48,210 nt of DNA from Minisyncoccia bacterium. GTDB taxonomy: Bacteria > Patescibacteriota > Minisyncoccia > Phycocordibacterales > UBA9973. The position numbers and the translations under genes are program-made. Positions 2,322-18,291 of the stretch are shown piece after piece. Location of the stretch: the NCBI GenBank assembly GCA_049287045.1, contig JBAQFC010000002.1:1-48210 (forward strand). Reading direction: 5' to 3'. The notes under the pieces are model-generated. The model saw only the letters and a program-made list of their open reading frames with translations. It did not search any database and was not told the origin of the DNA. Numbering within the stretch: position 1 is the stretch's first letter; the number at the start of each line of letters is the position of its first letter.

Positions 2322-2335
2322 AAAAAACTACACTC

Positions 2336-2731
2336 TTATTCTTCTATTTTTTGTAGATCTGTAATTTCTTTAAGCTTTTCAATTATTGTAGTAGGACTAG
2401 TTTCTGATTTTAAAAAATAAAAAGATGGTTCACTTTCTACGACATCTTTCATGATATTTTCATTTGGATCAATATTGGTCAGCATTATGACCGGAACTTT
2501 TTTACCCCAATCTCCAGAACTGCGTAACTGCTTTAACATACCCATTCCATCAAGTTCTGGCATATTAATATCACTCAAGATAAATTGAGGTTTTTCTTTT
2601 AATGCGCTCTCGAGACCTAAAATACCGTTACTCGCAGTTACTACATCAAACCCTTTCAAGACAAAAGCCTCTTTAAAATAATCTCTTATCTCCTTGTCAT
2701 CGTCCACCACCAATATTTTAGTTTTTTCCAT
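2336..2731 (-). CDS. response regulator, receiver domain only (CheY-like)
   Basis: ILVVDDDKEIRD, FILSDINMPELDG, VIMLTN. 131 aa with no output domain. Confidence 0.85.
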   Translation of the reverse strand: MEKTKILVVDDDKEIRDYFKEAFVLKGFDVVTASNGILGLESALKEKPQFILSDINMPELDGMGMLKQLRSSGDWGKKVPVIMLTNIDPNENIMKDVVESEPSFYFLKSETSPTTIIEKLKEITDLQKIEE

Positions 2732-2789
2732 GATAGATATAATTATAATATCTATTCTACTTTTCTGTTTTATTTATTGTGGATAACTT

Positions 2790-3632
2790 TTAGTTCATGT
2801 AACAAACACTACCACTTATAGTGATTTCACCTGTTACGAGATTTACATTGGCAACTTTTAGTTTATTCACCGAACAATTCGTTTCATTATGAGCAGTAAA
2901 AATAGGAACAGAAACAGTACCTGAGGTCAAAGGACGGCCAGCTATAAATCTTATCTCTGAAAAATCAAACCCCTTGCCCGCTTTTGTGTTTATGGCACCC
3001 AAGGTATCATTCTTCGATTTATAAAAAAGAGAATCAATTGGTTTGAAAATAGTAAATGTTGAATTAAAAGCAAGTTTATCAATAACAACATCAACATTAC
3101 TTTCATCTAAATAAGTATCTTTTGGAAGATTTAAATATTGATAAGTATCTTCGTTGGGACTTAATTTTACAAGGAAACTATCGGCTGTCTTAATCGACGC
3201 CCAATCAATATTGACGTTATAGATAATATAAAAAGATTCACCACTATTCCATTTAAGTATAGTTATTTCTTCAGGAATAATATGTTTATTAAAATATGAT
3301 TCACTATACCCGTTACGAGAAAATTGTTCTTTTTTCCAAATATCAAAATATTTTAAACAAACAGAGTCTCCTTTACACAAAATTTTATAATCTTTTTGTG
3401 CGACAGGAATTGTATCTGGGTTAGTTGTTACAATAGGTGGATTCTGATTCTGGTCAGCTGGTGGATTATTTTCTTTAACACAAAACATACCATTGGGGCC
3501 ACAAGTCCCAGTGTTTTCGTTTTTTGAAATATCTGAATTATTTGTCGAATAATAAACAACACCTCCAACAACTAAAATAATAATAGTTGCTAACAATATG
3601 CCAATCACCATAAAACCCTTATTGTATTTCAT
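2790..3632 (-). CDS. membrane-anchored extracytoplasmic protein, unknown function
   Basis: N-terminal TM (FMVIGILLATIIILVVGGVVYY) followed by a Cys-containing soluble domain. No family recognised. Confidence 0.6.
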   Translation of the reverse strand: MKYNKGFMVIGILLATIIILVVGGVVYYSTNNSDISKNENTGTCGPNGMFCVKENNPPADQNQNPPIVTTNPDTIPVAQKDYKILCKGDSVCLKYFDIWKKEQFSRNGYSESYFNKHIIPEEITILKWNSGESFYIIYNVNIDWASIKTADSFLVKLSPNEDTYQYLNLPKDTYLDESNVDVVIDKLAFNSTFTIFKPIDSLFYKSKNDTLGAINTKAGKGFDFSEIRFIAGRPLTSGTVSVPIFTAHNETNCSVNKLKVANVNLVTGEITISGSVCYMN

Positions 3633-5232: not shown

Positions 5233-7515
5233 TTAGCTAAATGCATTTAAAACGTTAGCCAAAAGGTTTTGCATTCCTTGCAAGAAACTACTTGGTGAAG
5301 AAGGCGGAGGTAAATTCTGCTGTTGAGGTGGAAGTTGTGGTTGCATTTGGTTTGGCTGGTTTGGCTGTCCACCTTGATTAAAACCCGGACCATTACCATT
5401 CACACCGGAACCGGGATTAAAACCTTGGCCTTGGTTGGGACCACCAGGACCATTACTTCCATTTTGGGGTTTTATATCATCAGGACCTATACCTAAACAA
5501 GTACCTGGACCTGTGCCACAAGGACCCGCAACACCGCTATCGGTATTTCCTTGTTCTAAATTATTAGGTTGACTAGGTTGCTGTTTAGGTAACATTTGTC
5601 CAGATTGTTTAGAACCATCTTGGTTAAGACCTGGTCCATTACCATTCACACCAGAGCCAGGATTAAAACCTTGGCCTTGGTTAGGACCGCCTTGCTGTTC
5701 TTGTTGCGGTTTAATATTTTTACATTCTTCTTGATTCGATTCGCAATAAGCCTTGCATTCTTCCGGCCCCTTACATCCACCAGGACCCGCCTGCTGTGGC
5801 ATCTGCTGACCGCTCGGATTTTTAGTCCCAGGTCCAGGTTGAAATTTATCTCCTGATTTACCTTGATTATTTTTATTAATCTGCTGATTTGGTTGACCCT
5901 GTTGATTTTGTCCCTGCTGATTCTGTTGGCCTTGTTTACCCTGCTGATTATTCTGCTGATAATTACCACACTTCGCAGTTGAACTTTCAGGGCAAACCGG
6001 TTTTCCGTCTGAACCTACTTTTGCTGATGCTACAAATTTTCCATCCCCGTCAACACAAGCCAACACCGTTGGATTTCCATTCTCGTCAGGTTGGCACATA
6101 TCTGCCCATGGTTGAATTTGCTGATTTGATTGACCTTGATTCATTTGTTGATTTTCTCCAGATTGATCTTGACCATCTTGGTTTTGATCTGGCTTTCTCT
6201 CTTGTATACCAGATTTTTGAAAACACTGATTAATAGAATCACCGTATTTTCTTCCTACCACAGATCCAGTTTTCATTTTTTCAACAACATCAGCACCAAC
6301 GGTAGAAGTTAGACAATCTAAAACTTCAGGTGGTATTGAAGAAAAGGAGTCTTTCATCTTCTGCTGGCCTTCCTGCATTTTTTGTAAATCTTCCTGAGGA
6401 ATCATTCCATTATCTTTAGCAAAATTAAAACAAGCGTCTTGGTTATCGGGATTACTACAAAAAGTATCACAGGCATCTTTACCAATACATCCGCCGGGTC
6501 CCTTGTTACCATTTTTTATAGAATTTTTTCCTTGCTCTTCAGTCATATTTCCAATTGCTACAGAAAATTTAACACATTCTTCAACGTGGCTGGAATCGGC
6601 ACAATACTGGTCACATGACTGCAAGCCCTGTACAGACTGGTCAGATTGTTTTGATTGACTGGATTGTTCGCTAGATTGATCGGGTGGATTAGGTCGGCAA
6701 GATGGAGGTTTAATTCCCTGTTTAAGAACTTTAATAGTTTTTTGTACTTGTTCTTTTTGATCATCCGGTACCATACCAGTCGCTAGAGAAAAAGTCATAC
6801 ATTCTTCTTGATGAGTCCCGCAATATTGATTACACATAGGCAAGCCACTACTAGATTGATTAGTTTGCTCAGATTGCCCAAGCTGATCAGACGGAGGATT
6901 TGGTTGACATGCTGGTGGTTTTACTCCTTGTTTCAAAGCTTCAAGAGTTTTCTGCATCTGTTCTTTCTGGTTATCCGGCACAATTCCTGCTGCTATAGAA
7001 AAAGTCATACATTCTTCCATATGTGATGGATTACTACAATATGCCTTACACTTCGCTCCAGTACAAGCAGGTGGTTTTAAACCACTCTTAATAGCTGTTA
7101 TAACTTTTTTAGAATCTTGCAATTGTTGATCAGACATCATTCCCTTTTTTTCAGCAAAAGCAGTACATTCTTCTAGATGATTTGAATCGCTGCAATATTG
7201 TTCGCACGCATCTTTTCCTTTGCAGCTACCTGGACCAACCATCCCGTTGTCTTTAAACTTTTTAGCATTAGATAATTCTTCAGTACTCATTAATTTACGC
7301 TGTTCAGCAAAACTCAAACAGGCGTCTATATTCTCCGACTTATCACAATAAGCCTTGCATGACGTCTTGTCTGCGCAGTTACCTAGCTCAACAACGGGAA
7401 AAGAAATTCCTGGAACAGCTTGATTATCTGTCTGAGCATGAGCAAAACTAATTATTCCACCAGAAATTAAAATCCCGGAAACTAAAATTAGAAAACTTAA
7501 AATATTTTTTTTCAT
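5233..7515 (-). CDS. secreted Cys-repeat protein with Q/N/G/P-rich low-complexity C-terminal half
   Basis: Signal peptide. About 7 copies of a module C-x2-[YF]-C-x5-8-C-x2-F (for example SCKAYCDKSENIDACLSF, ACEQYCSDSNHLEECTAF, KCKAYCSNPSHMEECMTF). Duplicated GPNQGQGFNPGSGVNGNGPG tracts. Confidence 0.75.
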   Translation of the reverse strand: MKKNILSFLILVSGILISGGIISFAHAQTDNQAVPGISFPVVELGNCADKTSCKAYCDKSENIDACLSFAEQRKLMSTEELSNAKKFKDNGMVGPGSCKGKDACEQYCSDSNHLEECTAFAEKKGMMSDQQLQDSKKVITAIKSGLKPPACTGAKCKAYCSNPSHMEECMTFSIAAGIVPDNQKEQMQKTLEALKQGVKPPACQPNPPSDQLGQSEQTNQSSSGLPMCNQYCGTHQEECMTFSLATGMVPDDQKEQVQKTIKVLKQGIKPPSCRPNPPDQSSEQSSQSKQSDQSVQGLQSCDQYCADSSHVEECVKFSVAIGNMTEEQGKNSIKNGNKGPGGCIGKDACDTFCSNPDNQDACFNFAKDNGMIPQEDLQKMQEGQQKMKDSFSSIPPEVLDCLTSTVGADVVEKMKTGSVVGRKYGDSINQCFQKSGIQERKPDQNQDGQDQSGENQQMNQGQSNQQIQPWADMCQPDENGNPTVLACVDGDGKFVASAKVGSDGKPVCPESSTAKCGNYQQNNQQGKQGQQNQQGQNQQGQPNQQINKNNQGKSGDKFQPGPGTKNPSGQQMPQQAGPGGCKGPEECKAYCESNQEECKNIKPQQEQQGGPNQGQGFNPGSGVNGNGPGLNQDGSKQSGQMLPKQQPSQPNNLEQGNTDSGVAGPCGTGPGTCLGIGPDDIKPQNGSNGPGGPNQGQGFNPGSGVNGNGPGFNQGGQPNQPNQMQPQLPPQQQNLPPPSSPSSFLQGMQNLLANVLNAFS

Positions 7516-7519
7516 ATAT

Positions 7520-7792
7520 TTATTGAAAAGGGTTAGTTTTTAAATTTGAAAATGGATTGGTTTTGTTATAAGGATTAGCATCCGTGTTTGGTAAACTAAC
7601 TGCAGGTATTGCTACATCTGGTGAAACATTATTTCCAACATTAGCTGAGATATCGTCCACTGTTTTTTGAACATCCTCCACTGCCTGTTGCGCAGCTGGT
7701 TTTTGCATTTTTATTTTCCAATAATAATATCCACCTATAATTAATATTAAAACAACAACCACCGAAACAATTATTAATAGTTTTTTATTCAT
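7520..7792 (-). CDS. small single-pass membrane protein
   Basis: N-terminal TM LLIIVSVVVVLILIIGGYYYW. The stop lies 5 nt upstream of the start of the 5233..7515 gene, which suggests an operon. Confidence 0.55.
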   Translation of the reverse strand: MNKKLLIIVSVVVVLILIIGGYYYWKIKMQKPAAQQAVEDVQKTVDDISANVGNNVSPDVAIPAVSLPNTDANPYNKTNPFSNLKTNPFQ

Positions 7793-7915: not shown

Positions 7916-8254
7916 TCAATAGCTTTCCATGATATCTTTTTGGGTAAATTCTCTAGTAGAAGTAAAAGTTTCAGTAACATAAATCTCCGATATAGGAATA
8001 AGTACTGGTAATTTTTCATATTCAAATTCTTTAACCATACTTTTTTCTTTTAAAGTTTTACATGCTTTTACTAATTCTTCAGGATCTATATCCAAAAAAA
8101 ATAAAGGGTAATTTATAAAACTACATTTTAGAAGTATTAGTCTAAATACTTCTTTTGTTACAACCTTACCATGAACCTTTTTTACTTCTTTAATTTTTTT
8201 ATGTAAAGTAGAAAGAACATGATTTTCTACATCTGATAAAATAATTTCTTCCAT
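7916..8254 (-). CDS. hypothetical protein (112 aa)
   Basis: Clean ORF with its own promoter (TTGACA-17-TATTGT around 8375-8403, minus strand), a leader of about 120 nt, and a terminator. No family recognised. Confidence 0.55.
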   Translation of the reverse strand: MEEIILSDVENHVLSTLHKKIKEVKKVHGKVVTKEVFRLILLKCSFINYPLFFLDIDPEELVKACKTLKEKSMVKEFEYEKLPVLIPISEIYVTETFTSTREFTQKDIMESY

Positions 8255-8566
8255 TTGTATTTTGATTTAAGTTGTTTGCGTTATTGCTCTATAAAAACCA
8301 ACAAATGACGTCCAGAGAGCAATATACAAAACAACCAAACATACAAAAGAACTACTATTATATATGCACAATAGCATTATTATATTGAATTGTCAATTTG
8401 ATTACTCCTGAGTTCAATAAGTAAATGCGACACCTTTCGGTGTTTTAATTTTGTGTATCACGAGTTACTAAGTATAATTTTTCGCTATGCTCAAATTCTA
8501 CGTAAGTACTCGCGACCCCAGCTCGTGATTTCATCTGCTGATGAAATATCACTGCGCTTTCCACAA

Positions 8567-8594
8567 ACTAAAAATCTCCCTAAAGGGAGATTTT
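8567..8594 (-). terminator. terminator downstream of tRNA-Ala
   Basis: Minus strand reads AAAATCTCCC-TTTA-GGGAGATTTT followed by TAGTTT. Confidence 0.7.
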
Positions 8595-8605
8595 CTTAAC
8601 GTTTG

Positions 8606-8678
8606 TGGACCCTACAGGACTCGAACCTGCCACCCCCTCATTGCAAATGAGGTGCTCTACCAGATGAGCTAAGGGCCC
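8606..8678 (-). tRNA. tRNA-Ala(UGC)
   Basis: Minus strand: GGGCCCT TA GCTC ATCTGGTA GAGC A CCTCA TTTGCAA TGAGG GGGTG GCAGG TTCGAGT CCTGT AGGGTCC A. G3:U70 identity pair present. No encoded CCA; the trailer starts CA. Confidence 0.95.
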
Positions 8679-8808
8679 AAACTATTTATTTGTAAAAACC
8701 TATAACTTTCTGTGTTGCCTTTACGAGACGCTACAGATGAACTAAAGGCTTAAACTTTGCTAACATGCATATAATATATCATTTAACTAAAAATGCAAAT
8801 CTATTTAC

Positions 8809-8836
8809 TTGTTTTTTGCATGGTTTCTGATAATAT
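8809..8836 (+). promoter_or_regulatory. putative promoter of the intron-containing tRNA-Asn
   Basis: TTGTTT (8809-8814), 16-nt spacer, TAATAT (8831-8836), about 30 nt upstream of tRNA position 1. Confidence 0.4.
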
Positions 8837-8865
8837 ACTTATGTTCTTGTTTTAATTGAATACAT

Positions 8866-9258
8866 TCGGGAGTAGCTCAGCGGTAGAGCGGTCGCCTGTG
8901 GAAATTTCCTCCCTTTGGTATAATATAATTATTATGTCAGATAATAGGAAATATGCTGATAAAGCATCACGCAGCTTTCTATTGAAAAATAGATCGAAAA
9001 TGGGGTGAATTCGGGGAAACCCAAACTTGTAATGAGTGGGTAATCCCGAGCCAAGCTCTGATGAAAATCAGAGAAGGTGTAGAGACTATCTCGCAAGAGA
9101 GTAGTGTTCCAATTATTTTGGAATCCGAAGCGCCTCACTTCTAAGTTTTGCAACATTATTTTTTGTTTGCAAAATATGGAGATGATATAGTCCGTACCAT
9201 TAGTAATAATGGAGAAAACGTAAGCGATTGGTCGTAGGTTCGATCCCTACCTCCCGAG
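8866..9258 (+). tRNA. tRNA-Asn(GUU) interrupted by a group I intron (exons 8866..8899 and 9221..9258)
   Basis: 5' exon: TCGGGAG TA GCTC AGCGGTA GAGC G GTCGC CTGT. 3' exon: TAA GCGAT TGGTC GTAGG TTCGATC CCTAC CTCCCGA G. The joined anticodon loop is CTGTTAA. U1-A72 and G73 as in E. coli tRNA-Asn. Confidence 0.85.
8900..9220 (+). ncRNA. group I intron, subgroup IC3-like, no ORF
   Basis: Core blocks are nearly identical to the Azoarcus tRNA-Ile and Anabaena tRNA-Leu introns as I recall them: GGGGTGAATTCGGGGAAACCCAAAC, AATCCCGAGCCAAGC, GAAGGTGTAGAGACTA, GATATAGTCCG. The 5' exon ends in U and the intron ends in G. A candidate IGS, GCAG, pairs with exon CUGU and gives a U.G wobble at the splice site. 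Confidence 0.85.
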
Positions 9259-9273
9259 CATTTAAAATCTTTA

Positions 9274-9300
9274 GCACCCTTTTGGGTGCTTTTGATTTTT
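9274..9300 (+). terminator. terminator after tRNA-Asn
   Basis: GCACCC-TTTT-GGGTGC followed by TTTTGATTTTT. Confidence 0.75.
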
Positions 9301-9302
9301 AT

Positions 9303-9439
9303 GCTCAGGAGAGAGAGCCAACTGCTTGGCTCTCGGGTAGGGAGCGAAAAGCTTTTCTGTGTTTTTAAAAATCATAGATTTTAAAAAACTAGAAAAGGTA
9401 TACTGCGGCTGTAAGCCGAGATCACCCTACCTCCCGAGC
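9303..9439 (+). repeat. tRNA-3'-end-mirroring structured element, Asn-type, copy 1
   Basis: 5' arm GCTCAGGAG + hairpin (9312-9334) + GGGTAGGGAGCGA is the reverse complement of the tRNA-Asn 3' end (TCGATCCCTAC|CTCCCGAGC). The 3' arm CCCTACCTCCCGAGC (9425-9439) is a direct copy of that 3' end. About 80% identical to 11054..11189, with compensatory changes in hairpins. Confidence 0.8.
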
Positions 9440-9443
9440 CAGC

Positions 9444-9476
9444 AAAAATCACTTTAGAAATAAGGTGATTTTTTGT
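9444..9476 (+). terminator. terminator-like hairpin closing element copy 1
   Basis: AAAAATCAC-loop-GTGATTTTTTG. Confidence 0.55.
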
Positions 9477-9498
9477 TACCTAAGTGGAAGTTCGAACC

Positions 9499-9650
9499 TT
9501 GACGAGTTAACAAATCTTTGGTAAGGTAACGGCAGTAATCAGTTGTTTGAAAATATTGGTTTTAATGTTTATTTAGTGAATTACCTTGGTCTTCTATATG
9601 GAGATTGAAGTAGTTCATTAAATTACTAACAATTTTAAATCATTAAAAAA
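9499..9650 (+). promoter_or_regulatory. promoter plus conserved 5' leader of about 125 nt, module copy 1
   Basis: TTGACG (9499-9504), 17-nt spacer, TAAGGT (9522-9527). About 70% identical over about 150 nt to 12895..13050, including a conserved stem-loop with loop CTTCTATAYGGAGA. Confidence 0.65.
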
Positions 9651-10325
9651 ATGAAAACATTAGAATTTAAAATTCTTTCCGATGAGGTACTCTCGTTTGA
9701 AAATTTCATTGACGTCATGTTAAATCAGGCATCTTTTCCAAATACTCTAGGCGACCTCCACAAATGGATAAAGGGTGAATATTGCAAGAGTGGCAGGCAT
9801 TATCATAATTTTGAGCATATAGGAGATTGTCTTATAAATCTTTCTATGTTTAGAGATTCCGTTGATCATGGAATTTATGGGAATAGCCAAGCTATTTTTA
9901 CTGCTATATATTTCCACGATATTGTTTACTTTCCAGGAAGAAATAATAATGAAGAATTATCTGCTACTGTTGCCGAATCAGCCCTTATATCACTAGGATG
10001 CAAAAAGGATTTTATCGAGCTGGTAAAAAAACTTATTATGGCAACCAAGCATAATCAAGTTTTAGAAACAGACGAGGAAAAACTTATTGCCGACATTGAC
10101 CTTTTAGGATTCGCTCTGCCTTGGGAAAAATATTTGGAGATGACAACAAAAATTTATGAAGAGTTCGGTGCTCTATATACTAAGAGTGAATTTATAAATA
10201 GACGCAAGGGCTTCCTAAGGAAAAACTTCTTTTCGAAAGATAGGATTTACTACACACCTTATTTTTATGAAAACTGCGAAAAATCCGCAAGAGATAATTT
10301 CCAAAGATTTTTAGCTCTGGAATAA
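9651..10325 (+). CDS. HD-superfamily phosphohydrolase-like protein
   Basis: RHYHNFEHIGDCL ... FHDIVYFPG motif pair, typical of the COG4339-type HD family. Confidence 0.65.
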   Translation: MKTLEFKILSDEVLSFENFIDVMLNQASFPNTLGDLHKWIKGEYCKSGRHYHNFEHIGDCLINLSMFRDSVDHGIYGNSQAIFTAIYFHDIVYFPGRNNNEELSATVAESALISLGCKKDFIELVKKLIMATKHNQVLETDEEKLIADIDLLGFALPWEKYLEMTTKIYEEFGALYTKSEFINRRKGFLRKNFFSKDRIYYTPYFYENCEKSARDNFQRFLALE

Positions 10326-10350
10326 TACTGTTTTTGTAATAAAATTATAA

Positions 10351-10384
10351 GGCTGTTCACGTAAGTGTTCAGCCTTTTATTATT
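10351..10384 (+). terminator. terminator of the 9651..10325 gene
   Basis: GGCTGTTCAC-GTAA-GTGTTCAGCC followed by TTTTATTATTT. Confidence 0.7.
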
Positions 10385-10388
10385 TCTA

Positions 10389-10415
10389 TTCGAATGTCAT
10401 CCCAAGTTCGGAGCA
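10389..10415 (+). repeat. hairpin motif copy A (TTCGAATGTCATCCCAAGTTCGGAGCA)
   Basis: Member of a motif with 4 direct copies plus 1 inverted copy. Stem TTCGAA/GTTCGGA around a conserved loop, followed by a terminator-like hairpin ACCAT..ATGGTGTTTTT (10425-10448). Confidence 0.7.
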
Positions 10416-10453
10416 AAATTTATAACCATATTTATCAATGGTGTTTTTGCCTA

Positions 10454-10475
10454 CCAACTTGGGACGTTCGAACTT
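10454..10475 (-). repeat. hairpin motif, inverted copy
   Basis: Minus strand reads AAGTTCGAACGTCCCAAGTTGG. It forms an inverted pair with copy A across about 38 nt. Confidence 0.55.
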
Positions 10476-10502
10476 AGATTATTTTTATGTTATAACTTAT
10501 AC

Positions 10503-10952
10503 ATGGAAGGAATAAACAAAAAGTCAGAACTACACAACTCTCTTCAAAGAAAAGTAGAACTTGCGTCAAAATATAATAAGGGCGACGAGTTACCTGTAGA
10601 TTTTAAAAAAATAGAAGGTGCTGTGGGTATGTTTGATATCTTGTTAGAGGGTGAAAAAGTAGGTACTTTTGAAATAGCAGATACAAATCCTGAGGAAGAA
10701 AACTTGAGCGTAAAAACCAAACAGTTAGGTTTTATCAGGATTGATGATTTGTTTTTAAATAAAGGATTAGGTAAACAATTTTATATCGTTTTAAATAATT
10801 ATTTGAAAAATACAGAAGATTCTGTACTTGAGTCATCAGGAGAACATATTACTCCTCAAGCTAAGCGAGTGTGGGCTTCCTTGCTAAAGGATGGGTTGGT
10901 TTATAAAGAAGGAACTAGATCAAACGGCGAAGATTTTTATAGATTTAAATAA
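10503..10952 (+). CDS. hypothetical protein (149 aa), possibly acetyltransferase-like
   Basis: ATG at 10503 (MEGINKK...). The longer track ORF from 10365 would run through the terminator and repeat motifs. The segment FIRIDDLFLNKGLGKQFY is only weakly GNAT-like. Confidence 0.5.
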   Translation: MEGINKKSELHNSLQRKVELASKYNKGDELPVDFKKIEGAVGMFDILLEGEKVGTFEIADTNPEEENLSVKTKQLGFIRIDDLFLNKGLGKQFYIVLNNYLKNTEDSVLESSGEHITPQAKRVWASLLKDGLVYKEGTRSNGEDFYRFK

Positions 10953-10983
10953 TGTTTAAATCTGCTTTCTATCAATGATGACT

Positions 10984-11011
10984 CTCCGAACATCATCCCA
11001 AGTTCGGAGCA
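10984..11011 (+). repeat. hairpin motif copy B (CTCCGAACATCATCCCAAGTTCGGAGCA)
   Basis: 8-bp stem CTCCGAAC/GTTCGGAG with loop ATCATCCCAA. It occupies the position that the tRNA-Asn 3' end occupies next to copy 1. Confidence 0.7.
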
Positions 11012-11024
11012 TTAAAAAATCTTA

Positions 11025-11050
11025 GCACCCTTTTGGGTGCTTTTGATTTT
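11025..11050 (+). terminator. terminator hairpin identical to the one after tRNA-Asn
   Basis: GCACCC-TTTT-GGGTGC followed by TTTTGATTTTT. Confidence 0.7.
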
Positions 11051-11053
11051 TAT

Positions 11054-11189
11054 GCTCGGGAGACAAAGCAAACTTCTTTGCTTTGGTGTAGGGAGCGAAA
11101 AGCTTTTCTGTGTTTTTGGAAATCTTTGATTTACAAAAACGAGAAAAGGTATACTGTTCCTGTAAGGAAAGATACCCTACCTACCGAGC
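11054..11189 (+). repeat. tRNA-3'-end-mirroring structured element, Asn-type, copy 2 (no adjacent tRNA)
   Basis: GCTCGGGAG + hairpin CAAAGCAAA-CTTC-TTTGCTTTG + GTGTAGGGAGCGA ... GTATACTG TTCCT-GTA-AGGAA ... CCCTACCTACCGAGC (11175-11189). Confidence 0.8.
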
Positions 11190-11425
11190 CAGATGCGTCA
11201 AAATAAAATTTGACTAGTGTATGTACTATGATATGCTATAAGCATCACTATGAAAGAGACCCTTATGCAGATTCGTCTGCATCGGGGGCTTTTTCTTTTT
11301 AGGGCTTACTTGAGAACTTATGATAATGTTCGTTTAAGAAAGTTATTTCTATATTTTTATTTCTTAATAAAATTGAACATTTGTTTTTATCTGGAGCAAT
11401 AATGCAATGAATTGACTTGTTCCCT

Positions 11426-11446
11426 CATTGTCCCAAGTTCGGAGCA
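11426..11446 (+). repeat. hairpin motif copy C (3' half: CATTGTCCCAAGTTCGGAGCA)
   Basis: Shares CCCAAGTTCGGAGCATTA with copy B and TTACAAAGAC with copy D. Followed by hairpin ACATTGA-CAGG-TCAATGT (11455-11472). Confidence 0.55.
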
Positions 11447-11457
11447 TTACAAAGACA

Positions 11458-11486
11458 TTGACAGGTCAATGTATTGTTTGTAGTAT
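11458..11486 (+). promoter_or_regulatory. promoter of the 11533..12108 gene
   Basis: TTGACA (11458-11463), 17-nt spacer, TAGTAT (11481-11486). Confidence 0.55.
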
Positions 11487-11532
11487 GATGGTAAATTAAC
11501 GGAGTCCTTAAACAATACTAAATATAGAAAAA

Positions 11533-12108
11533 ATGAATATTGAAAAAGATATCTCAAATCAACTTAAAGAGAGATCAGATTTATTTTCTGATTTTTTAAA
11601 TTTAAAAGTACTACATATTCCCTCTACCGAAGAACCTCTCTCTTATTATTTTATTTTACTTGGAATTGATTTAAAGGAGAAGCAATCTTTTTTAAAAAAT
11701 ATAAGTTTTATGGAACTTATGAAAGATGTTTTAGATAAGCGTGATAATACTCGTGAAATTGAACTTGAATATCAAGGAACAATAGAGCATCTTGATGATC
11801 ACAAACCATGGTGTTTTCTTGAACAAGTTCTTCTTAATCCATACAAAGAAGATGAAAGCTATGACACAAGGAGCTACTATGCTTATAAGGATTATAAAAA
11901 GAATGTTTTTTATGATTGGTATCATGACGTAGGTTGGAAAGGAAGAACAGATATTGTCCAAGTAAATGACGCATCTTTTACTCCCAAAAAATCTTTGAAA
12001 ACATTTTTGGAAGTTAATGGTTTTTCAAAAGACATAATTCCAAAAGTGCATATTGTAAGATGTGTGCGTCATCCTGTTGGAGAGAAAATATATTATGTTG
12101 GCTCATGA
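11533..12108 (+). CDS. hypothetical protein (191 aa)
   Basis: Clean ORF with promoter and terminator. No family recognised. Confidence 0.55.
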   Translation: MNIEKDISNQLKERSDLFSDFLNLKVLHIPSTEEPLSYYFILLGIDLKEKQSFLKNISFMELMKDVLDKRDNTREIELEYQGTIEHLDDHKPWCFLEQVLLNPYKEDESYDTRSYYAYKDYKKNVFYDWYHDVGWKGRTDIVQVNDASFTPKKSLKTFLEVNGFSKDIIPKVHIVRCVRHPVGEKIYYVGS

Positions 12109-12122
12109 TAGTACACCAATTT

Positions 12123-12150
12123 AATCCCTTGAAATTCAAGGGATTTTTTA
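12123..12150 (+). terminator. terminator of the 11533..12108 gene
   Basis: AATCCCTTG-AAAT-TCAAGGGATT followed by TTTTA. Confidence 0.75.
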
Positions 12151-12154
12151 TTGC

Positions 12155-12193
12155 AATAAAAAACACCACCCGATAAATATATAAAGGGTGGTG
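12155..12193 (-). terminator. terminator of the 12220..12819 gene
   Basis: Minus strand: CACCACCC-loop-GGGTGGTG followed by TTTTTT. Confidence 0.7.
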
Positions 12194-12219
12194 CATGACA
12201 GTTTGTTGTCGTAAGTATG

Positions 12220-12819
12220 CTATTCTTCTTTTGGTTTGAATCCAAGGTCTTTTAAGAGAGGGAATTTTTTTATCATTCTAATAATTTCTATCGCTCTTTT
12301 TGGAAATTTTAAGCTCTTAAGATGTTTTTCTGTACAATTTAAGCAATCCCCGACAGTTTTAAACCCATTTTTCTTTAAAATTTCTACGTAATCTTTAAGA
12401 AACGAGTTAACTTCTATCGGCTCTGTAAGTTCTTTTTGTAATTGTTCCGACTTGAATTTTTTCTCATTAAATTCTATTTCCTTCATTAAATTCTCGATTT
12501 TTTCAACCCCATAGAGTTTCTTAGCATCTTCTATGAGCTTTTGGTATATTTCATTACCAAACTTTCTGCTGAAATATCCGTAGAAAGTTTCCTTATCATA
12601 ATGATGACAATAATCATGAATATGACAAGTATGAGATGACCCAACATAAGCGATACTTCCAACATTTCTTCTTTCCTCAAAGAAAATTGACCCATCCTCA
12701 AGTAGAGAAATCTTTATAGAATCACTACTCATATAGTCGTATCTTGATCCCTTTTTGGAATTTTCTTCCCATGGGACAATGACAGTAGATAAGACACTTA
12801 AAATCTTTTTTGTTTTCAT
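12220..12819 (-). CDS. hypothetical protein with C-terminal helix-hairpin-helix-like segment
   Basis: ATG at 12819 (MKTKKILS...). The C-terminal segment GFKTVGDCLNCTEKHLKSLKFPKRAIEIIRMIKK resembles an RpoA-CTD/HhH fold. His/Cys cluster HTCHIHDYCHHY. Confidence 0.5.
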   Translation of the reverse strand: MKTKKILSVLSTVIVPWEENSKKGSRYDYMSSDSIKISLLEDGSIFFEERRNVGSIAYVGSSHTCHIHDYCHHYDKETFYGYFSRKFGNEIYQKLIEDAKKLYGVEKIENLMKEIEFNEKKFKSEQLQKELTEPIEVNSFLKDYVEILKKNGFKTVGDCLNCTEKHLKSLKFPKRAIEIIRMIKKFPLLKDLGFKPKEE

Positions 12820-12894
12820 GTGTTTTAGTTTTAAATGAACCAAATCGGCTCGGTTAGTATTAGGAATTTCTGATTGAACATTACCACTTAATCA

Positions 12895-13050
12895 TTGACG
12901 AGTCAACAAATCTTTGGTAATGTAGTGGCAAGATTTAGTTATTTGAAATACAGATTTTGTTGTTATTGATTTAGTTGCTTTGAGCTTCTATACGGAGACT
13001 AAAGTGACTAAATCAATAAATTAATTTCACAATTTAAAACCACAACGAAA
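12895..13050 (+). promoter_or_regulatory. promoter plus conserved 5' leader, module copy 2
   Basis: TTGACG (12895-12900), 17-nt spacer, TAATGT (12918-12923). Stem TTGATTTAGT/ACTAAATCAA encloses CTTCTATACGGAGA. Homologous to 9499..9650. Confidence 0.65.
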
Positions 13051-13527
13051 ATGAAAAAATATCATTTCAAACATCACTTCCGTGATGAAGAAACTGCTGG
13101 GGCATTTAGATCTTTTGCAAAGCAGCTCCTAAAAATAAGAAAGCAAATACAACACTATCGAAAGGACAAATTAAAGAGAAAAGAGATCTTTAATTTAGCT
13201 TGCTCTCATAAAGAATTAGGAAATTTATTTGAGAGAAAACTCAACGATGATTCTATAAATATAGCAAAAGAGTTGAGTCCTGTTTTTACATCAGAGTTTA
13301 ATGGTGTAATTGTTAAGGTTGTTAAATCATCAACATTAAAATCGATTGAAAGGCAATACATAAGAATTGTAAACGAAAGAACATTCCTTGATAAGGATAG
13401 TCAGGAACCTACCAAATTTAACAAAAAAGAAAATAACACGAGACCGTTGAAAGACGTATTAATTTTCCCAGTTAGAACTATGGAAGATATTCTTAAAAAG
13501 AAAAAAAGAAGATACCCAAAAAGATAG
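13051..13527 (+). CDS. hypothetical basic protein (158 aa)
   Basis: Clean ORF behind the module-2 leader. Lys/Arg-rich, no family recognised. Confidence 0.55.
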   Translation: MKKYHFKHHFRDEETAGAFRSFAKQLLKIRKQIQHYRKDKLKRKEIFNLACSHKELGNLFERKLNDDSINIAKELSPVFTSEFNGVIVKVVKSSTLKSIERQYIRIVNERTFLDKDSQEPTKFNKKENNTRPLKDVLIFPVRTMEDILKKKKRRYPKR

Positions 13528-13548
13528 AAGTCTTAATTAAAAGTTAAA

Positions 13549-13582
13549 AACCTAATTTACTGAAAAGTGATTAGGTTTTTTT
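13549..13582 (+). terminator. terminator of the 13051..13527 gene
   Basis: AACCTAAT-loop-ATTAGGTT followed by TTTTTTATTT. Confidence 0.7.
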
Positions 13583-13603
13583 ATTTCCCATCCAAAATAC
13601 TCA

Positions 13604-13629
13604 TTCGAACATCATCCCAAGTTCGGAGA
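13604..13629 (+). repeat. hairpin motif copy D (TTCGAACATCATCCCAAGTTCGGAGA)
   Basis: Same stem and loop as copy B. Followed by TTACAAAG and the terminator hairpin at 13643-13666. Confidence 0.7.
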
Positions 13630-13642
13630 AAATTTACAAAGA

Positions 13643-13666
13643 CTCGTACGAAAGTACGGGTTTTTG
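13643..13666 (+). terminator. terminator hairpin after motif D
   Basis: CTCGTAC-GAAA-GTACGGG followed by TTTTTG. Confidence 0.6.
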
Positions 13667-13685
13667 TATTGTCTTTTTGTACAAA

Positions 13686-13712
13686 CAAAAAACACCCCGA
13701 AAGGTGTTTTTT
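13686..13712. terminator. bidirectional terminator hairpin
   Basis: AAAAAACACC-CCGAA-AGGTGTTTTTT. Confidence 0.55.
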
Positions 13713-13800
13713 GCGGCACTTATGTTATTTAACGAATAGTATGAGTTTTACCTCACACCCACACAAACAGTATAGCATACTCCAATAAAAAAAGCAAGCG

Positions 13801-13830
13801 AAAACCCCCGATTTTAATCGGGGGTTTTCT
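13801..13830 (-). terminator. terminator of rnpB
   Basis: GAAAACCCCCGATT-TTAA-TCGGGGGTTTTC, a symmetric hairpin immediately 3' of the RNase P RNA. Confidence 0.7.
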
Positions 13831-13837
13831 TGTGTCT

Positions 13838-14212
13838 AATGTCTTGCATCTGTAAGCCGAATTCTGTATTCCAGCCGAAGCTGAAACGATAGTCATTTGT
13901 CTAGGCCTGACATTACTATCAGGCTCAAGCGATTCTCCCCGACCGAAGCCAGAGCACGATCTTGCATAGAGGTAAGGATTTAGCCGTTTCATATTCTATA
14001 TTACTATAGAACTCATCCTATGATTACTCATAGGATGATCTTTCCCTTTCGAGAAAAATCGTCTCTGTTCGCACCTATATATTGCTATATGCGGGCGTTA
14101 CCCGCTACCATTCCCTTCCCGAAGGATTCGCTATGTTCGGACTTTCCTCCCTTCAGCTTCGCTCAGGGCAAGCCCCTAACAAAACCAAAGAGTAACTACC
14201 CAACGCAGGACA
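13838..14212 (-). ncRNA. rnpB: RNase P RNA, bacterial type A
   Basis: Minus strand contains GGGAGGAAAGTCCGAAC (P4 5' strand), GGTAACGCC, and ACAGAATTCGGCTTAC (P4 3' strand). P1 pairing is GTCCTGCGTTGG with CAGATGCAAGAC. End coordinates are good to within about 5 nt. Confidence 0.9.
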
Positions 14213-14295: not shown

Positions 14296-17200
14296 TTATT
14301 CAATAAAAACTTTTTTGGTAAGAATTGAATTCGAAGAAATAATCTTCACAAGATACAAACCTTGTGGCAAATCATTTTTCAAAATCTGAAAACTATTTCC
14401 TTCTTCCTTTATACTGCGAACAATCTGACCCAGATTATTTACAACATTTATTTCATATTTTCCATATGGTAATTCTACATGCAAAACATCCATAAAAGGA
14501 TTGGGAAACAACTTCACATCTTCATCCTTAATAGCCTCATTAACCCCAACGAAAGACTTTTCAAAAAAACATCCATCGGTACTGTACTGGAAATACATAG
14601 CATCCACATCACTTACCTCTACATTGTTAAACACAGCCGAAGTTGTGTTTTGCATTGAAGGAGTATAGACATGAGTCGTAGATCCAGAAGTTTTTAGTTT
14701 AAGACTACTACCAAAAATTCCTTGCACTCCTACTGTTTTTGTCGTTCCGGAACCAGTCACTGTAACGTTGTTTACAACAGGTACAGAGTCTACTCTAACA
14801 GACATTGATGCCGACTTTGGACAGCCATTACCATCAAGATAAGTGTAAGTTAAAGTATTAGTTCCAGCATTTGCGGTTGCCGCATTGAAGTTATTTCCTA
14901 CAAATGAAATTCCATTCGCAGAAAAAGTTCCAGGTGACGGGCTTCCAGTAAAAGTGATCGTATGATTCGTGGCCTCTTTACAAATTTCAACAATACCTAA
15001 ATTTGAAGTAATAGATACGCTCGCATTATTTGTTACTGGTGTAACGGTAACACTTGCAGTATTTATACAACCATTGATATCCGTGCCGGTAACTGTTTCT
15101 GTTAAAGAAGTATTACCAGTCGGAGTTACAACAATCGGAGATCCAGTTTGACCTCCAGTCCATGAATAAGTATTAGCTCCACTTGCAGACAAGGTTGCCG
15201 ATGTACCACTACAAACCGTAGCGTTACCAGACGTAGTAATCACAGGTAAAGGGTTCACCGTTACGATTACACTTGCTGTATCAACACAACCATTAATATC
15301 GGTAGCAGTTACAGTATAAGTTTTTGTAGTTATTGGGTTGGCAATAATGCTTCCCAAAGTAGTACTACTTAAACTTGTTGAGGGAGACCATGTGTAGGAA
15401 GAACCACCTGCACCCGTTAGGGTCGTTGATCCTCCTTTACAAAATGAACTACCTGCTACTGCAGACACTACCGGCAAAGGATTTACTGACAAAATAGTTA
15501 TAACCGTATCTTTACATCCGTTGATATCCGACACTACTGCTGAATAAATTGTAGTGACAGTTGGATTGGCATTTACGCTAAATCCAGTCGCACTACTCAG
15601 GCCAGTAACTGGAAACCAAGAGCATGAAATACCACCGATCGCTGTAAAAGTTTTTGAACCTCCAATACAAACTGAAGAATTCGCTGATACAGTACCTATT
15701 GGTGATGGATGAACAGTTATAACAACAACGTTTGAATTACTTACGCAACCATTAATATCGGTTCCAACCGCGGTATAAGAAATAGTATTGGCTGGATTAA
15801 TATTAATGGGAGATCCGATTTGACCTCCAGTCCAAGAATAAACATTTGCTCCACTTCCAGTTAAAGTAGTTGAAGTTCCAGCACAGATCGTGCCAACACT
15901 TGCAACGGCAGTAACTATCGGCAAAGCATTAACTTTAACTTTTGTAATAGCCGTATCTTTGCACCCATTCGGGTCCGTTAAAACTGCAGAATAAATTGTA
16001 GTAATAATTGGATTAGCATTTACGCTAAACCCAGAAGTACTACTCAAACCCGCAGAAGGATACCAGAAACATGAAGTTCCACCAGAGGCAACTAAACTTT
16101 TTGTTGACCCTATACAAATAGAGTCATTTGGAGTTACTGTTGCAACTGGTAATGGATTTACGGTAATAACAACACTTGCAGTGTTAACACAAGTATTCGC
16201 GTCTGTTCCCGTTACTATATAAGTAGTGGTACTAGGAGGGCTCGTATTGAATGAAGATCCAGTTTGACCTGTACTCCAAGTATACGTACTTGCCCCGCCA
16301 GCAGTTAAGGTAGATGTAGCTCCAGCACATATTGTACTAGGACTTGCAAGTACAGTGACTGAAGGTAGAGGGTTAACAGTAACTAAAATATTATTACCAC
16401 TTACACAGCCATTTATATCAGTTCCAACTACACCATAAGAAGTGGTATTAATAGGAGTTATACTGAATGAAGCTGTTGTCTGACCTCCTCCCCAAGAATA
16501 AGTACTTGCTCCACCAGCAGTTAAAGTAGTTGCAGTACCGTTACAAATTGTATTGGCACTTGCGGTTACAGTAATTAAAGGTGTGGGATTAACCGTAACA
16601 GTAACACTTGCATTATTTGTACAATTATTAGCATTTGTTCCAACCACGCTATAAGTAGTGGTTGTATTTGGAACAACAAAATATGAAAATCCAGTTTGAC
16701 CTGAATTCCATATATACGTACTTGCTCCACCAGCAGTTAAAGTAGTTGAAGTGCCATTACAAACGATAAGAGCACTTGCGGTTACAGTAACTATTGGCAA
16801 CGGATTAACCGTAATCGTAACACTTGCAGTGTTAACACAAGTATTCGCATCTGTTCCCGTTACTATATAAGTAGTGGTACTAGGAGGACTCGTATTGAAT
16901 GAAGATCCAGTTTGACCTGTACTCCAAGTATACGTACTTGCCCCGCCAGCAGTTAAGGTAGATGTAGATCCAGCACAGATTGTGTTCGGACTTGCAACTG
17001 CGGTGACTGAAGGTAGAGGGTTAACGACAATTGTAAAGTTAGTATTCTTTGCACAACCAAAGACGTCTGTTCCTGTTACATTGTAAGCAACAGTACTAAC
17101 CGGAGTTACATTTATTGAAGTTAAGGTTTCACCCCCGCCCCAAAGATAAGTATTTGCTCCAGTGACATTTAAAGTGGTTGTAGCACCAACACAGATTGTA

Positions 17201-18291
17201 TTGGCACTTGCAGTTACAAGAACTGTAGGCACAGGATACACCGCAATATTAATAGTGTTTGTGTCTTTACACCCATTAACATCTGTTGCGATCACAGTAT
17301 AAGTAGAAGCACCACTAATAGGACTTGCAGTTACATTTGATCCTGTCGTACTACTCAAAGTACTACCCGGAGACCATAAATAAGAAGTTCCACCAGTGGC
17401 AATTAAAGGACTTGAACCACCAGCACAAACTAAATTGCTTTGTGTGAGGGTTCCGATTGGTAATGAATTAACGGTTACTGTTGTTATGTTTGTGTCTTTA
17501 CATCCGTTCGCGTCAGTTTCAATCACTGTGTAAGTTGTTGTACTAAGAGGGTTCGCATTTACGCTTGCCAAAGTAGTACTATTCAAACCAGTTGAAGGAG
17601 ACCATGCAAATAAAGTACCACCAGTCGCTGTTAAGCTTTTTAATCCTCCAAAACAAATTGAAGAATTAGCTGTCACAGTTCCAATTGGTAATGCATTTAC
17701 AGTTAAAACGAATGCGGATGCACTTTCAGTACATCCAATAATTGTTACATCAACAGTATAACTTCCGGAAGTATTTGCTACATAAGTCGAAGCGGTTGCC
17801 CCGGCAATGATTACATTATTTCTTTTCCATTGATAAGTAGCTCCTAAAGTAGAAGCAGTCAATGTGTCCAAAATTCCTGCACAAATACTATCATTTGTAG
17901 ATGATGAGATAACGGGAGTAGGAAAACATGATGGAGTTGTAAAAGTTCCCACCGCACTACTTCCAGATGCAGCTCCAGGCAAAACTTTTGCTTTGTAACT
18001 GTAAGTGGTAGAAGGTGTTAATCCTGTCAAAGTAATTGCAATAGTCGTGTCAGCAACGGGATTCATTAAAGTTGCTACTGAACAATTCGAATTGAAATTA
18101 CCTCCTGTACCGTGACAAAACTGACGAAAGCCAACAGCTATTAAAGCATTGTAATGGCACCAGGCTATGGCGCTGGTTGGCGTGACGTTCGTGACTGAAT
18201 CTACTTTTACATAATTCAGATTCACATTTTGGGCATTTACTGCCCCGAAAGCAATAACAATTGCAATCATAATTAGGATGATTTTTTTCAT
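14296..18291 (-). CDS. giant surface adhesin-like protein: about 14 Ig-like Cys-bracketed repeats plus T9SS-type (Por_Secre_tail) C-terminal domain
   Basis: Signal peptide. Repeats follow the pattern C.G....LTA.G...Y.W.......V.P..TT.Y.V.GTD.NGC......V.VNPLP. C-terminus is LFPNPFMDVLHVELPYGKYEINVVNNLGQIVRSIKEEGNSFQILKNDLPQGLYLVKIISSNSILTKKVFIE. Confidence 0.85.
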   Translation of the reverse strand: MKKIILIMIAIVIAFGAVNAQNVNLNYVKVDSVTNVTPTSAIAWCHYNALIAVGFRQFCHGTGGNFNSNCSVATLMNPVADTTIAITLTGLTPSTTYSYKAKVLPGAASGSSAVGTFTTPSCFPTPVISSSTNDSICAGILDTLTASTLGATYQWKRNNVIIAGATASTYVANTSGSYTVDVTIIGCTESASAFVLTVNALPIGTVTANSSICFGGLKSLTATGGTLFAWSPSTGLNSTTLASVNANPLSTTTYTVIETDANGCKDTNITTVTVNSLPIGTLTQSNLVCAGGSSPLIATGGTSYLWSPGSTLSSTTGSNVTASPISGASTYTVIATDVNGCKDTNTINIAVYPVPTVLVTASANTICVGATTTLNVTGANTYLWGGGETLTSINVTPVSTVAYNVTGTDVFGCAKNTNFTIVVNPLPSVTAVASPNTICAGSTSTLTAGGASTYTWSTGQTGSSFNTSPPSTTTYIVTGTDANTCVNTASVTITVNPLPIVTVTASALIVCNGTSTTLTAGGASTYIWNSGQTGFSYFVVPNTTTTYSVVGTNANNCTNNASVTVTVNPTPLITVTASANTICNGTATTLTAGGASTYSWGGGQTTASFSITPINTTSYGVVGTDINGCVSGNNILVTVNPLPSVTVLASPSTICAGATSTLTAGGASTYTWSTGQTGSSFNTSPPSTTTYIVTGTDANTCVNTASVVITVNPLPVATVTPNDSICIGSTKSLVASGGTSCFWYPSAGLSSTSGFSVNANPIITTIYSAVLTDPNGCKDTAITKVKVNALPIVTAVASVGTICAGTSTTLTGSGANVYSWTGGQIGSPININPANTISYTAVGTDINGCVSNSNVVVITVHPSPIGTVSANSSVCIGGSKTFTAIGGISCSWFPVTGLSSATGFSVNANPTVTTIYSAVVSDINGCKDTVITILSVNPLPVVSAVAGSSFCKGGSTTLTGAGGSSYTWSPSTSLSSTTLGSIIANPITTKTYTVTATDINGCVDTASVIVTVNPLPVITTSGNATVCSGTSATLSASGANTYSWTGGQTGSPIVVTPTGNTSLTETVTGTDINGCINTASVTVTPVTNNASVSITSNLGIVEICKEATNHTITFTGSPSPGTFSANGISFVGNNFNAATANAGTNTLTYTYLDGNGCPKSASMSVRVDSVPVVNNVTVTGSGTTKTVGVQGIFGSSLKLKTSGSTTHVYTPSMQNTTSAVFNNVEVSDVDAMYFQYSTDGCFFEKSFVGVNEAIKDEDVKLFPNPFMDVLHVELPYGKYEINVVNNLGQIVRSIKEEGNSFQILKNDLPQGLYLVKIISSNSILTKKVFIE

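Follow-up and report, generated by a model that had tools for sequence, protein, structure and literature searches.

In the genome of a Minisyncoccia bacterium (assembly GCA_049287045.1, Patescibacteriota), the interval between a tRNA-Ala/tRNA-Asn gene pair and the RNase P RNA gene is occupied by an islet of small genes and repeated non-coding elements (positions 8255-13720), arranged as a tandem array of short units that begins at the 3' end of the tRNA-Asn gene. All positions refer to a window of 48,210 nucleotides (contig C2, JBAQFC010000002.1), the whole stretch of DNA analysed, which belongs to a 97.5 % complete genome of 855 kb, 34 % G+C and 19 contigs, a genome size typical for Patescibacteria. 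This focal genome is designated G000, while other G numbers denote genomes of the comparison set, L numbers fetched loci and C numbers contigs. An earlier sequence-only reading had described the interval as nearly half non-coding and as flanked by these RNA genes, and both statements hold: the protein-coding share amounts to 51 % and the non-coding share to 49 % (40 % is non-genic once tRNA-Ala and tRNA-Asn with its intron are counted as genic), and the flanks were recovered by Rfam, ARAGORN and exon reading.

The anchor of the array is the tRNA-Asn(GUU) gene (8866-9258, + strand), the exons of which (8866-8899 and 9221-9258, read from the sequence) are separated by a group I intron of 321 nt (8900-9220, +; RF00028, 68.6 bits against a cut-off of 50) that contains no open reading frame (ORF) here. 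ARAGORN misses the gene because the intron splits the anticodon loop; the exons are contiguous in intron-less relatives such as G096. The 3' end of the gene, CCCTACCTCCCGAGC (9245-9259), marks the starting point of the array. The intron is polymorphic in the genus, being absent in G096 (L052, reverse strand, 6426-6501), and an uninterrupted tRNA-Asn was called by ARAGORN in nine loci flanking large serine recombinase (LSR) genes, including those of G215, G019, G121 and G192. The introns of G078 (L042 665-1285), G089 and G001 contain an ORF of ~85-115 aa, which resembles an HNH-type endonuclease judging by eye from its Cys/His motifs. On the other side of the anchor lies tRNA-Ala(UGC) (8605-8678, -; ARAGORN and Rfam), followed by an element that is conserved in genus relatives (8450-8604, -). 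The distal flank (13630-13836, +) contains terminator-like hairpins at 13635-13668 and ~13690-13710 and the rnpB terminator at 13800-13829, and is followed by the bacterial type A RNase P RNA gene (13837-14204, -; Rfam, 102.9 bits against a cut-off of 100), which is conserved in the genus.

The array consists of two non-coding units, three coding cassettes and one decayed cassette, all read here on the + strand. Unit 0 (9260-9439) is composed of a terminator (9273-9290) and an Asn-type tRNA-mirroring element (A1, 9301-9440), and its last 15 positions (9425-9439) are an exact copy of the tRNA-Asn 3' end. This unit is absent in G078, where the tRNA-Asn end is joined straight to a homologue of window 9425-9480, so that G078 is an empty site for unit 0. 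Cassette 1 (9440-10414) opens with a start hairpin (9446-9478) and GTTCGAACC, a start class that stands directly after motifs in ~18 genus genomes, and continues with a promoter and leader (9499-9650), an ORF for an HD-family phosphohydrolase (9651-10325) and a conserved end motif (10388-10414). Cassette 2 (10415-11010) has a start of the same type (hairpin, TACC, GTTCGAAC; class Y1 below), an ORF of 149 aa that belongs to no family (10503-10952) and the end motif at 10984-11010. Unit 3 (11011-11189) repeats the plan of unit 0, with a terminator of the unit 0 type (11024-11041) and mirror element A2 (11052-11190), and ends in CCCTACCTACCGAGC (11175-11189), an exact or near-exact copy of the tRNA end. 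A2 thus stands behind the motif instead of the tRNA, and this junction of motif with terminator and mirror (here 11010/11011) recurs in G130, G096, G192 and G159. The identity of units 0 and 3 (86 % over the 172-nt repeat, 9271-9442 versus 11022-11192) argues against a recent local duplication; the pair of A1 behind the tRNA and A2 behind the motif is the outcome that would be expected if a circle with a motif|terminator-mirror joint had integrated at a tRNA|terminator-mirror site.

Cassette 4 (11190-11445) is decayed. It retains a promoter and a bidirectional terminator (~11210-11300) and, on the - strand, the last 39 codons of an NYN-domain gene (11305-11421; tblastn aligns amino acids 121-159 only), joined to the right half of the motif (11431-11445). 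The block is 80-86 % identical to sequences in at least 12 genus genomes that possess an intact NYN gene of 160 aa, and in G096 this gene constitutes a complete motif-bounded cassette. The only other NYN-like sequence in the focal genome is a paralogue on contig C11 with 31 % identity. The conserved block 11237-11402 was also considered as a new small RNA gene, a candidate that was rejected, as it corresponds to the NYN gene 3' end and terminator. Cassette 5 (11446-13629) is composite and comprises a promoter (11458-11486), an ORF of 191 aa (11533-12108), a terminator (12123-12145), an ORF of 207 aa on the - strand (12220-12843), a second promoter and leader (12895-13050), an ORF of 158 aa (13051-13527) and the end motif (13603-13629).

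The sequence-only reading had counted six small orphan genes, each with its own promoter and terminator. The interval contains five ORFs of at least 149 aa, the sixth (7916-8254) lying outside, and the HD protein is not an orphan, as its ORF gives a PHROG phosphohydrolase match (E 2e-28), the sole assignment obtained for the islet cargo, since Pfam, PADLOC (defence) and PDB sequence searches returned no match. The islet ORFs are real but rare: among 5.8 billion proteins, two homologues were found for the HD protein, one for the 207-aa protein and six for the 191-aa protein, while a search of 1.84 billion representatives brought up no more than three weak relatives for the 158-aa ORF. For one cargo protein, a homologue with 56 % identity carries the label Candidatus Nomurabacteria. 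As to expression signals, terminator-like hairpins are enriched (14 versus 4.2 +/- 1.9 expected), and promoter-like sites are not (22 versus 26.5 +/- 5 expected). Two of three postulated copies of a promoter-leader module were confirmed (9499-9650 and 12895-13050, 73 % identity), both containing long hairpins that fold more favourably than shuffled sequences (z -3.8 and -4.9). The third, upstream of the 112-aa ORF 7916-8254, has no convincing similarity to them; this promoter and hairpin leader (8255-8400, -) is duplicated, with 82 % identity, at C9:29631-29780 upstream of an unrelated gene, and the two form a second family of shared promoter-leader modules.

The end motif, a conserved sequence of ~38 nt (ATTCGAACATCNTCCCAAGTTCGGAGC; consensus AtTAtanttATTCGAACATCnTCCCAAGTTCGGAGC from an alignment of 40 junctions in 10 genomes), is the feature that joins these units into one system. 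It occurs at 10388-10414, 10984-11010, 11431-11445 (right half only) and 13603-13629, always on the + strand. No copy was found elsewhere in the focal genome, nor of the reversed motif used as a control; among 212 genomes of the genus, searched with at most one mismatch, 40 contain the motif, as same-strand clusters on one contig, and the reversed control again gave none. The junctions follow a sharp rule. Every unit starts immediately behind one (G/C)GAGC site and ends in another, and this site is provided by the tRNA-Asn end, by its exact copy in a mirror element or by the ~38-nt motif. To the left of the junction ~38 nt are conserved, and to the right of GGAGC the sequence changes abruptly into one of a few unrelated classes: a hairpin followed by TACC and GTTCGAACC, in several cases with a -10-like box near the ATG (Y1), a terminator with an Asn-type mirror element (Y2), a GTGAA-rich block (Y3) or a TTGACT promoter (Y4). 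The tRNA-Asn 3' end and the 3' arm of the mirror take the position of the motif at junctions, and most of the observed left and right types occur in combination, including tRNA with LSR gene, Y1, mirror or Y3, motif with LSR gene or any of Y1-Y4, and the mirror's mimic of the tRNA end with Y1. The motif itself is identical to the tRNA-Asn 3' end at 13 of 18 positions. Its derivation, as a fragment, from a genuine tRNA of some other lineage (collapsed, with acceptor TCCGAAC/GTTCGGA) was rejected: the tRNA-like site GGTTCRANTCCCAAGTTCGGAG was found, with up to two mismatches, in none of 401 genomes of the order, and no tRNA of the focal genome has this acceptor.

The sequence-only reading had regarded the motif as a 26-nt hairpin present in five copies. 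Its recurrence, and the terminator-like hairpin after each copy, are borne out, the number of copies being four with the third reduced to a half; its hairpin nature is not, because in G083 the motif sequence is conserved and yet both arms no longer pair, which speaks for a conserved DNA site rather than an RNA hairpin. The same observation bears on the proposal that the motif and hairpins are expression signals, acting in termination, processing or transcript stability or resembling repetitive extragenic palindromes, with the variability of the locus resulting from ordinary recombination in a hot region. The terminator-like hairpin behind every copy, the enrichment of terminator-like sites and the ability of some copies to form a hairpin would agree with such a role. 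However, the confinement of the motif to the tRNA-Asn array, despite hundreds of other gene ends in the genome, its conservation in G083 where the hairpin is non-complementary, its resemblance to the tRNA-Asn end and its replacement of that end to the left of LSR genes and mirrors make this explanation very unlikely.

The mirror elements extend well beyond the islet. The two Asn-type elements recognized earlier were confirmed, with 86 % identity and scores of 124 and 121.5 bits to the family model. Pieces of the 172-nt unit match other contigs, in all cases directly behind tRNA or transfer-messenger RNA (tmRNA) genes, and a covariance model detects at least 13 copies in the genome, behind the genes for tRNA-Asn, Arg, Trp, Tyr, Ser (two), Pro, His, Val and Asp and for tmRNA; with the focal genome included, the model matches 27 of 41 genomes, representing 13 of 17 genera of the order. 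The mirrors are thus a genome-wide family behind many tRNA genes that is not peculiar to the islet. Their 5' arm is the reverse complement of the 3' acceptor strand of the host gene. Next come a conserved hairpin (GCCAACTGCTTGGC) and a stretch that copies the T-stem 5' strand and includes TTCGAAA; these lead into a long hairpin of variable sequence, closed by CTTTTC/GAAAAG, then into GGTATACTG and a small hairpin with GTAA, and the element ends with copies of the 3' strands of T-stem and acceptor. Folds of single sequences converge on four helices, and compensatory changes are seen at 15 of 29 consensus pairs when six copies are aligned. In the element behind the tmRNA gene (G000:C11:2075-2229, -), the 5' arm TGGTGGAGATG complements the tmRNA 3' end CATCTCCACCA exactly. 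The element trailing tRNA-Ala opens in the same way with the reverse complement of the tRNA 3' end and carries the GAAAAATTATACT block as in the mirror family; over the ~150 nt that trail tRNA-Ala, G063, G021 and G052 show 86-93 % identity, and a partial copy lies near tRNA-Glu on contig C10 (C10:40862-40922), the two sharing a 62-nt block with 93.5 % identity. The mirror model (R1) gives no match on 8450-8604, and this element is probably a divergent branch of the family that the model does not detect. Rfam is likewise silent on these features: an E-value scan of 8250-13850 yielded only the intron and tRNA-Ala above curated cut-offs and no family for the mirror elements, the leaders or the motif. 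With respect to the array, a mirror formally behaves as a 180-bp non-coding cassette that would supply an additional exact tRNA end.

Comparison with relatives reveals that the locus is neither syntenic nor invariant, and that the motif is present at the same place in other genomes. DNA of the locus was matched against 100 genus genomes (150 matches listed and 256 further). The listed matches fall on the tRNA-Ala gene and the element behind it, the intron-bearing tRNA-Asn gene, RNase P RNA, the mirror unit, block 11237-11402 and a 90-aa ORF to the left of the islet (7520-7792), and none of the five islet ORFs is matched among them. The distance from tRNA-Ala to rnpB is below 0.8 kb in G063 and G101. 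Other genes, separated by motifs, stand behind tRNA-Asn in nine relatives (G078, G063, G130, G096, G083, G136, G121, G192 and G159), and in five of these (G078, G063, G130, G096 and G159) an array with unrelated genes inside begins at the very 3' end of tRNA-Asn. The units of relatives are compact (0.5-2 kb) and, according to ORF maps, mostly co-oriented with the tRNA; G078, for example, contains a co-directional row of GATase, Ham1, NUDIX, peptidase S51, ASCH and GNAT genes with the motif and start hairpins of the islet between them. The closest metagenomic relative of cassette 5 (L113) retains the 191-aa gene (90.5 % identity) together with other neighbours, including Fic, and the same end motif. 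Its frame runs from a mirror end through genes, motif, Y1 gene and motif to a terminator with mirror, so that the junction frame is common with the islet and the genes differ. Outside the array, the islet is bordered by a 760-aa Cys-repeat, Q/N-rich secreted protein (5233-7515) and a 1331-aa repeat protein with a C-terminal tail resembling those of the type IX secretion system (14296-18291); in G096, a homologue of the 760-aa protein stands next to the tRNA-Asn array at its distal end.

The sequence-only reading had noticed no integrase or transposase, and the window indeed contains no recombinase, transposase or reverse transcriptase. The focal genome has no resolvase or LSR 'Recombinase' domain and no reverse transcriptase, rve or IS110 domain; its only recombinases are two tyrosine enzymes of Xer size on other contigs. 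A candidate enzyme is found in relatives. LSRs with Resolvase, Recombinase and Zn-ribbon domains occur in 137 of the 212 genus genomes, and the enzyme of G136 served as query for a survey of the neighbourhoods of its 30 best homologues. In 17 of these the gene, which runs on the opposite strand, overlaps the 3' end of tRNA-Asn by exactly 12 nt, its stop codon being the CTA of the T-stem (...CTC GGG AGG TAG; loci L064-L088, e.g. G136:C8:78408-79961). One further gene lies 675 bp away, two abut the motif and read 39-51 nt through it, and others abut tRNA-Ser, tRNA-His or tRNA-Gln. An association of the recombinase with both tRNA-Asn and the motif is thereby shown, and the C-terminal tail of the protein should, by its reading frame, depend on the integration state. 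In G083, G136, G121 and G192 an LSR element of 8-14 kb lies between tRNA-Asn and the first motif, and behind that motif follows the same class (Y1 or terminator with mirror) that stands behind tRNA-Asn in unoccupied genomes. The cargo of these elements appears defence-like, by eye only (AbiE-like, restriction-modification-like and OLD-like ATPase genes). In G215:C1 (L111), two LSR genes (2010-3569 and 10608-12272), 87 % and 51 % identical to the G136 enzyme, follow tRNA-Asn in one orientation with ~8 kb between them, as if two full elements had accreted directly in tandem. The simplest reading of these junctions is that the motif may be the element-side partner of the tRNA end and that recombinase-less cassettes carry the same site.

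A tyrosine recombinase, namely one of the two of Xer size in the focal genome, or an unrecognized enzyme might instead work these sites, in which case the islet would be a genuine counterpart of an integron and still active. Two tyrosine recombinases are indeed encoded in the genome, and in many motif-bearing genomes the LSR gene is located on other contigs. Nevertheless, the tyrosine recombinases are single-copy proteins of ~300 aa, encoded on other contigs and present in all five genomes tested regardless of arrays, a pattern that fits chromosome dimer resolution. The arrays examined have no tyrosine recombinase next to them, LSR genes by contrast run into the very site, and the tyrosine alternative is accordingly hardly credible.

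The islet is best understood as a set of small units of a mobile type, lined up in tandem from the 3' end of tRNA-Asn, that were moved by tRNA-Asn-targeting LSRs and are now fixed and partly decaying, an interpretation to which a probability of roughly 0.6 is assigned. The serial site-specific insertion at a tRNA gene proposed by the sequence-only reading is thus supported, and the enzyme it found missing can be identified in relatives as the LSR abutting tRNA-Asn. According to this model, units would be inserted, shuffled and deleted by site-specific recombination at sites ending in (G/C)GAGC, with the crossover presumably at, or within a few bases of, GAGC. Catalysis would be provided by the tRNA-Asn-targeting LSRs that relatives carry at the same place on elements of 8-14 kb. 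The small cassettes, which lack a recombinase, would be moved by the same enzyme, either in trans or in cis by accretion, and the focal genome may have lost the enzyme or never had it, so that its array would be a record of past captures.

Several observations weigh against this interpretation. No serine recombinase, not even an LSR fragment, was found by six-frame searches of the 97.5 % complete focal genome, because of which the array is probably frozen or dependent on a recombinase acting in trans. Only the left half of the site is conserved, which is unusual for the site of a serine recombinase dimer. The half motif at 11431-11445 points to a crossover nearer to the middle of the motif than to GAGC, and G121 contains a clear hybrid of the motif left half and the true tRNA end; together they hint at a crossover in the shared ATCCC core rather than at GAGC. 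A one-mismatch hybrid match in G017 is no better than the reversed control, which also gave one, and, contrary to a crossover within the dyad, each of the four LSR elements examined has an entire motif at its end. The covarying helices and complementary 5' arm of the mirrors have a role that the cassette reading leaves unexplained. Relatives have tidier arrays than cassette 5, in which the three genes point in two directions. Finally, tblastn of all islet ORFs against all fetched arrays detected no shared cargo gene, and the few cargo homologues sit in ordinary contexts without the motif, so that cassette-style movement of these particular genes would be conjectural.

Some of the same observations would suit a different history, in which the cassettes never moved singly and are the leftovers of successive full-size LSR elements after internal deletions, each leaving its right end, that is the motif, and a little cargo, as in the decay of tycheposons and tRNA islands. 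Full-size LSR elements end in the same motif, decay is visible in the NYN remnant, the half motif and the truncated 3' arm of the mirror in L113, and cassette 5 is composite. On the other hand, six-frame searches detected no LSR pseudogene fragment in the genome, and none was present among ORFs of at least 90-120 aa in the inspected arrays. The units of relatives, moreover, are compact and mostly co-oriented with the tRNA, and at several junctions they have a start module of their own with a -10-like box before the ATG, which is not what random deletion would produce. Decay of larger elements is therefore considered an unlikely origin of the islet as a whole, and movement of individual small units by an LSR remains the preferred explanation.

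A broader proposal may be built on LSR-driven cassette movement, although the conjunction of all its parts is doubtful. The genus might run an integron-like system of gene capture with tRNA-targeting LSRs, in which promoter-bearing mini-cassettes of 0.3-2 kb would each carry a site of ~38 nt imitating the tRNA-Asn end. The mirrors would be 180-bp non-coding cassettes planting exact tRNA ends as landing pads, which would enable arrays to grow without touching the essential tRNA, and the C-terminal tail of the junction-spanning recombinase gene would report whether the element is at the tRNA, at the motif or circular. If true, this would constitute a second, independently evolved type of integron-like array, based on a serine instead of a tyrosine recombinase. 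Gene exchange is poorly understood in Patescibacteria with their tiny genomes, and tRNA-anchored cassettes, if they recur at several tRNAs, could offer a simple general route for accessory-gene turnover. The short, sharply bounded sites and the identifiable recombinases of relatives make the idea directly testable in E. coli, and the LSRs could be of interest as new tRNA-directed integrases.

Among known systems, integrons invite comparison by their rows of mostly co-oriented, unrelated small genes, conserved end sites, hypervariable content and growth from one anchor. In integrons, the tyrosine recombinase IntI acts on attC sites, which are folded bottom-strand hairpins with R and L boxes, and the cassettes depend on the promoter Pc. 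In contrast, no IntI-type enzyme lies beside the array or beside those of relatives, the R''-L''/L'-R' architecture of attC is absent, the cassettes have promoter modules of their own and the anchor is a tRNA gene. The islet has the look of an integron and none of its defining parts. In staphylococcal cassette chromosome (SCC) composite islands, the serine recombinases CcrAB/C act at the 3' end of the essential gene rlmH, site conservation is one-sided, and elements accrete in tandem, including recombinase-less pseudo-SCC elements bounded by the same repeats (summarized in PMC3146451). The islet would share with them a serine recombinase, a gene 3' end as target, a one-sided site, accretion and recombinase-less elements, whereas the SCC target is protein-coding and the elements are large, belong to Firmicutes and are devoid of tRNA mimicry and mirror elements.

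The nearest known system appears to be that of the Dehalococcoides ssrA islands, with SCC accretion and tycheposons similar in logic. The ssrA islands are arranged in tandem behind a tRNA-like gene and bounded by direct repeats of its 3' end, with an additional conserved motif just upstream of the repeat; the gene for a CcrB-type LSR of ~540 aa lies on the reverse strand immediately at attL, and units without an integration module have been read as cis-mobilizable and moved by accretion (McMurdie et al. 2011, PMC3146451). Tandem units at the 3' end of an RNA gene, direct repeats resembling that end, shared flanks with differing content and recombinase-less units are all found here, while an LSR on the reverse strand beside attL is absent from the focal genome and present in relatives (17/30). 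The differences are nonetheless considerable. The target is tRNA-Asn instead of tmRNA, the units measure 0.25-2.2 kb, often with one gene and its own promoter, as opposed to 10-30 kb, and the repeat is a diverged look-alike (13/18) rather than an exact 20-bp copy; in addition, no second small recombinase or integration module was seen, and the focal genome has no such recombinase at all. In the tRNA islands of Prochlorococcus, tycheposons integrate repeatedly at one tRNA, so that older elements move outward; the island is strewn with partial tRNAs and degenerate remnants, and a minority of elements use LSRs (Hackl et al., bioRxiv 10.1101/2020.12.28.424599). Streamlined genomes, repeated tRNA-anchored integration, remnants and some LSRs are thus common to both, although tycheposons rely mostly on tyrosine recombinases, span several kb with replication modules and leave true partial tRNAs, in place of which a dedicated 38-nt site is found here. 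Literature searches found nothing comparable for Patescibacteria, and this array is set apart from the systems described above by its miniature cassettes with promoters of their own, by a dedicated site that resembles the tRNA end, by its interplay with mirror elements and by the host phylum.

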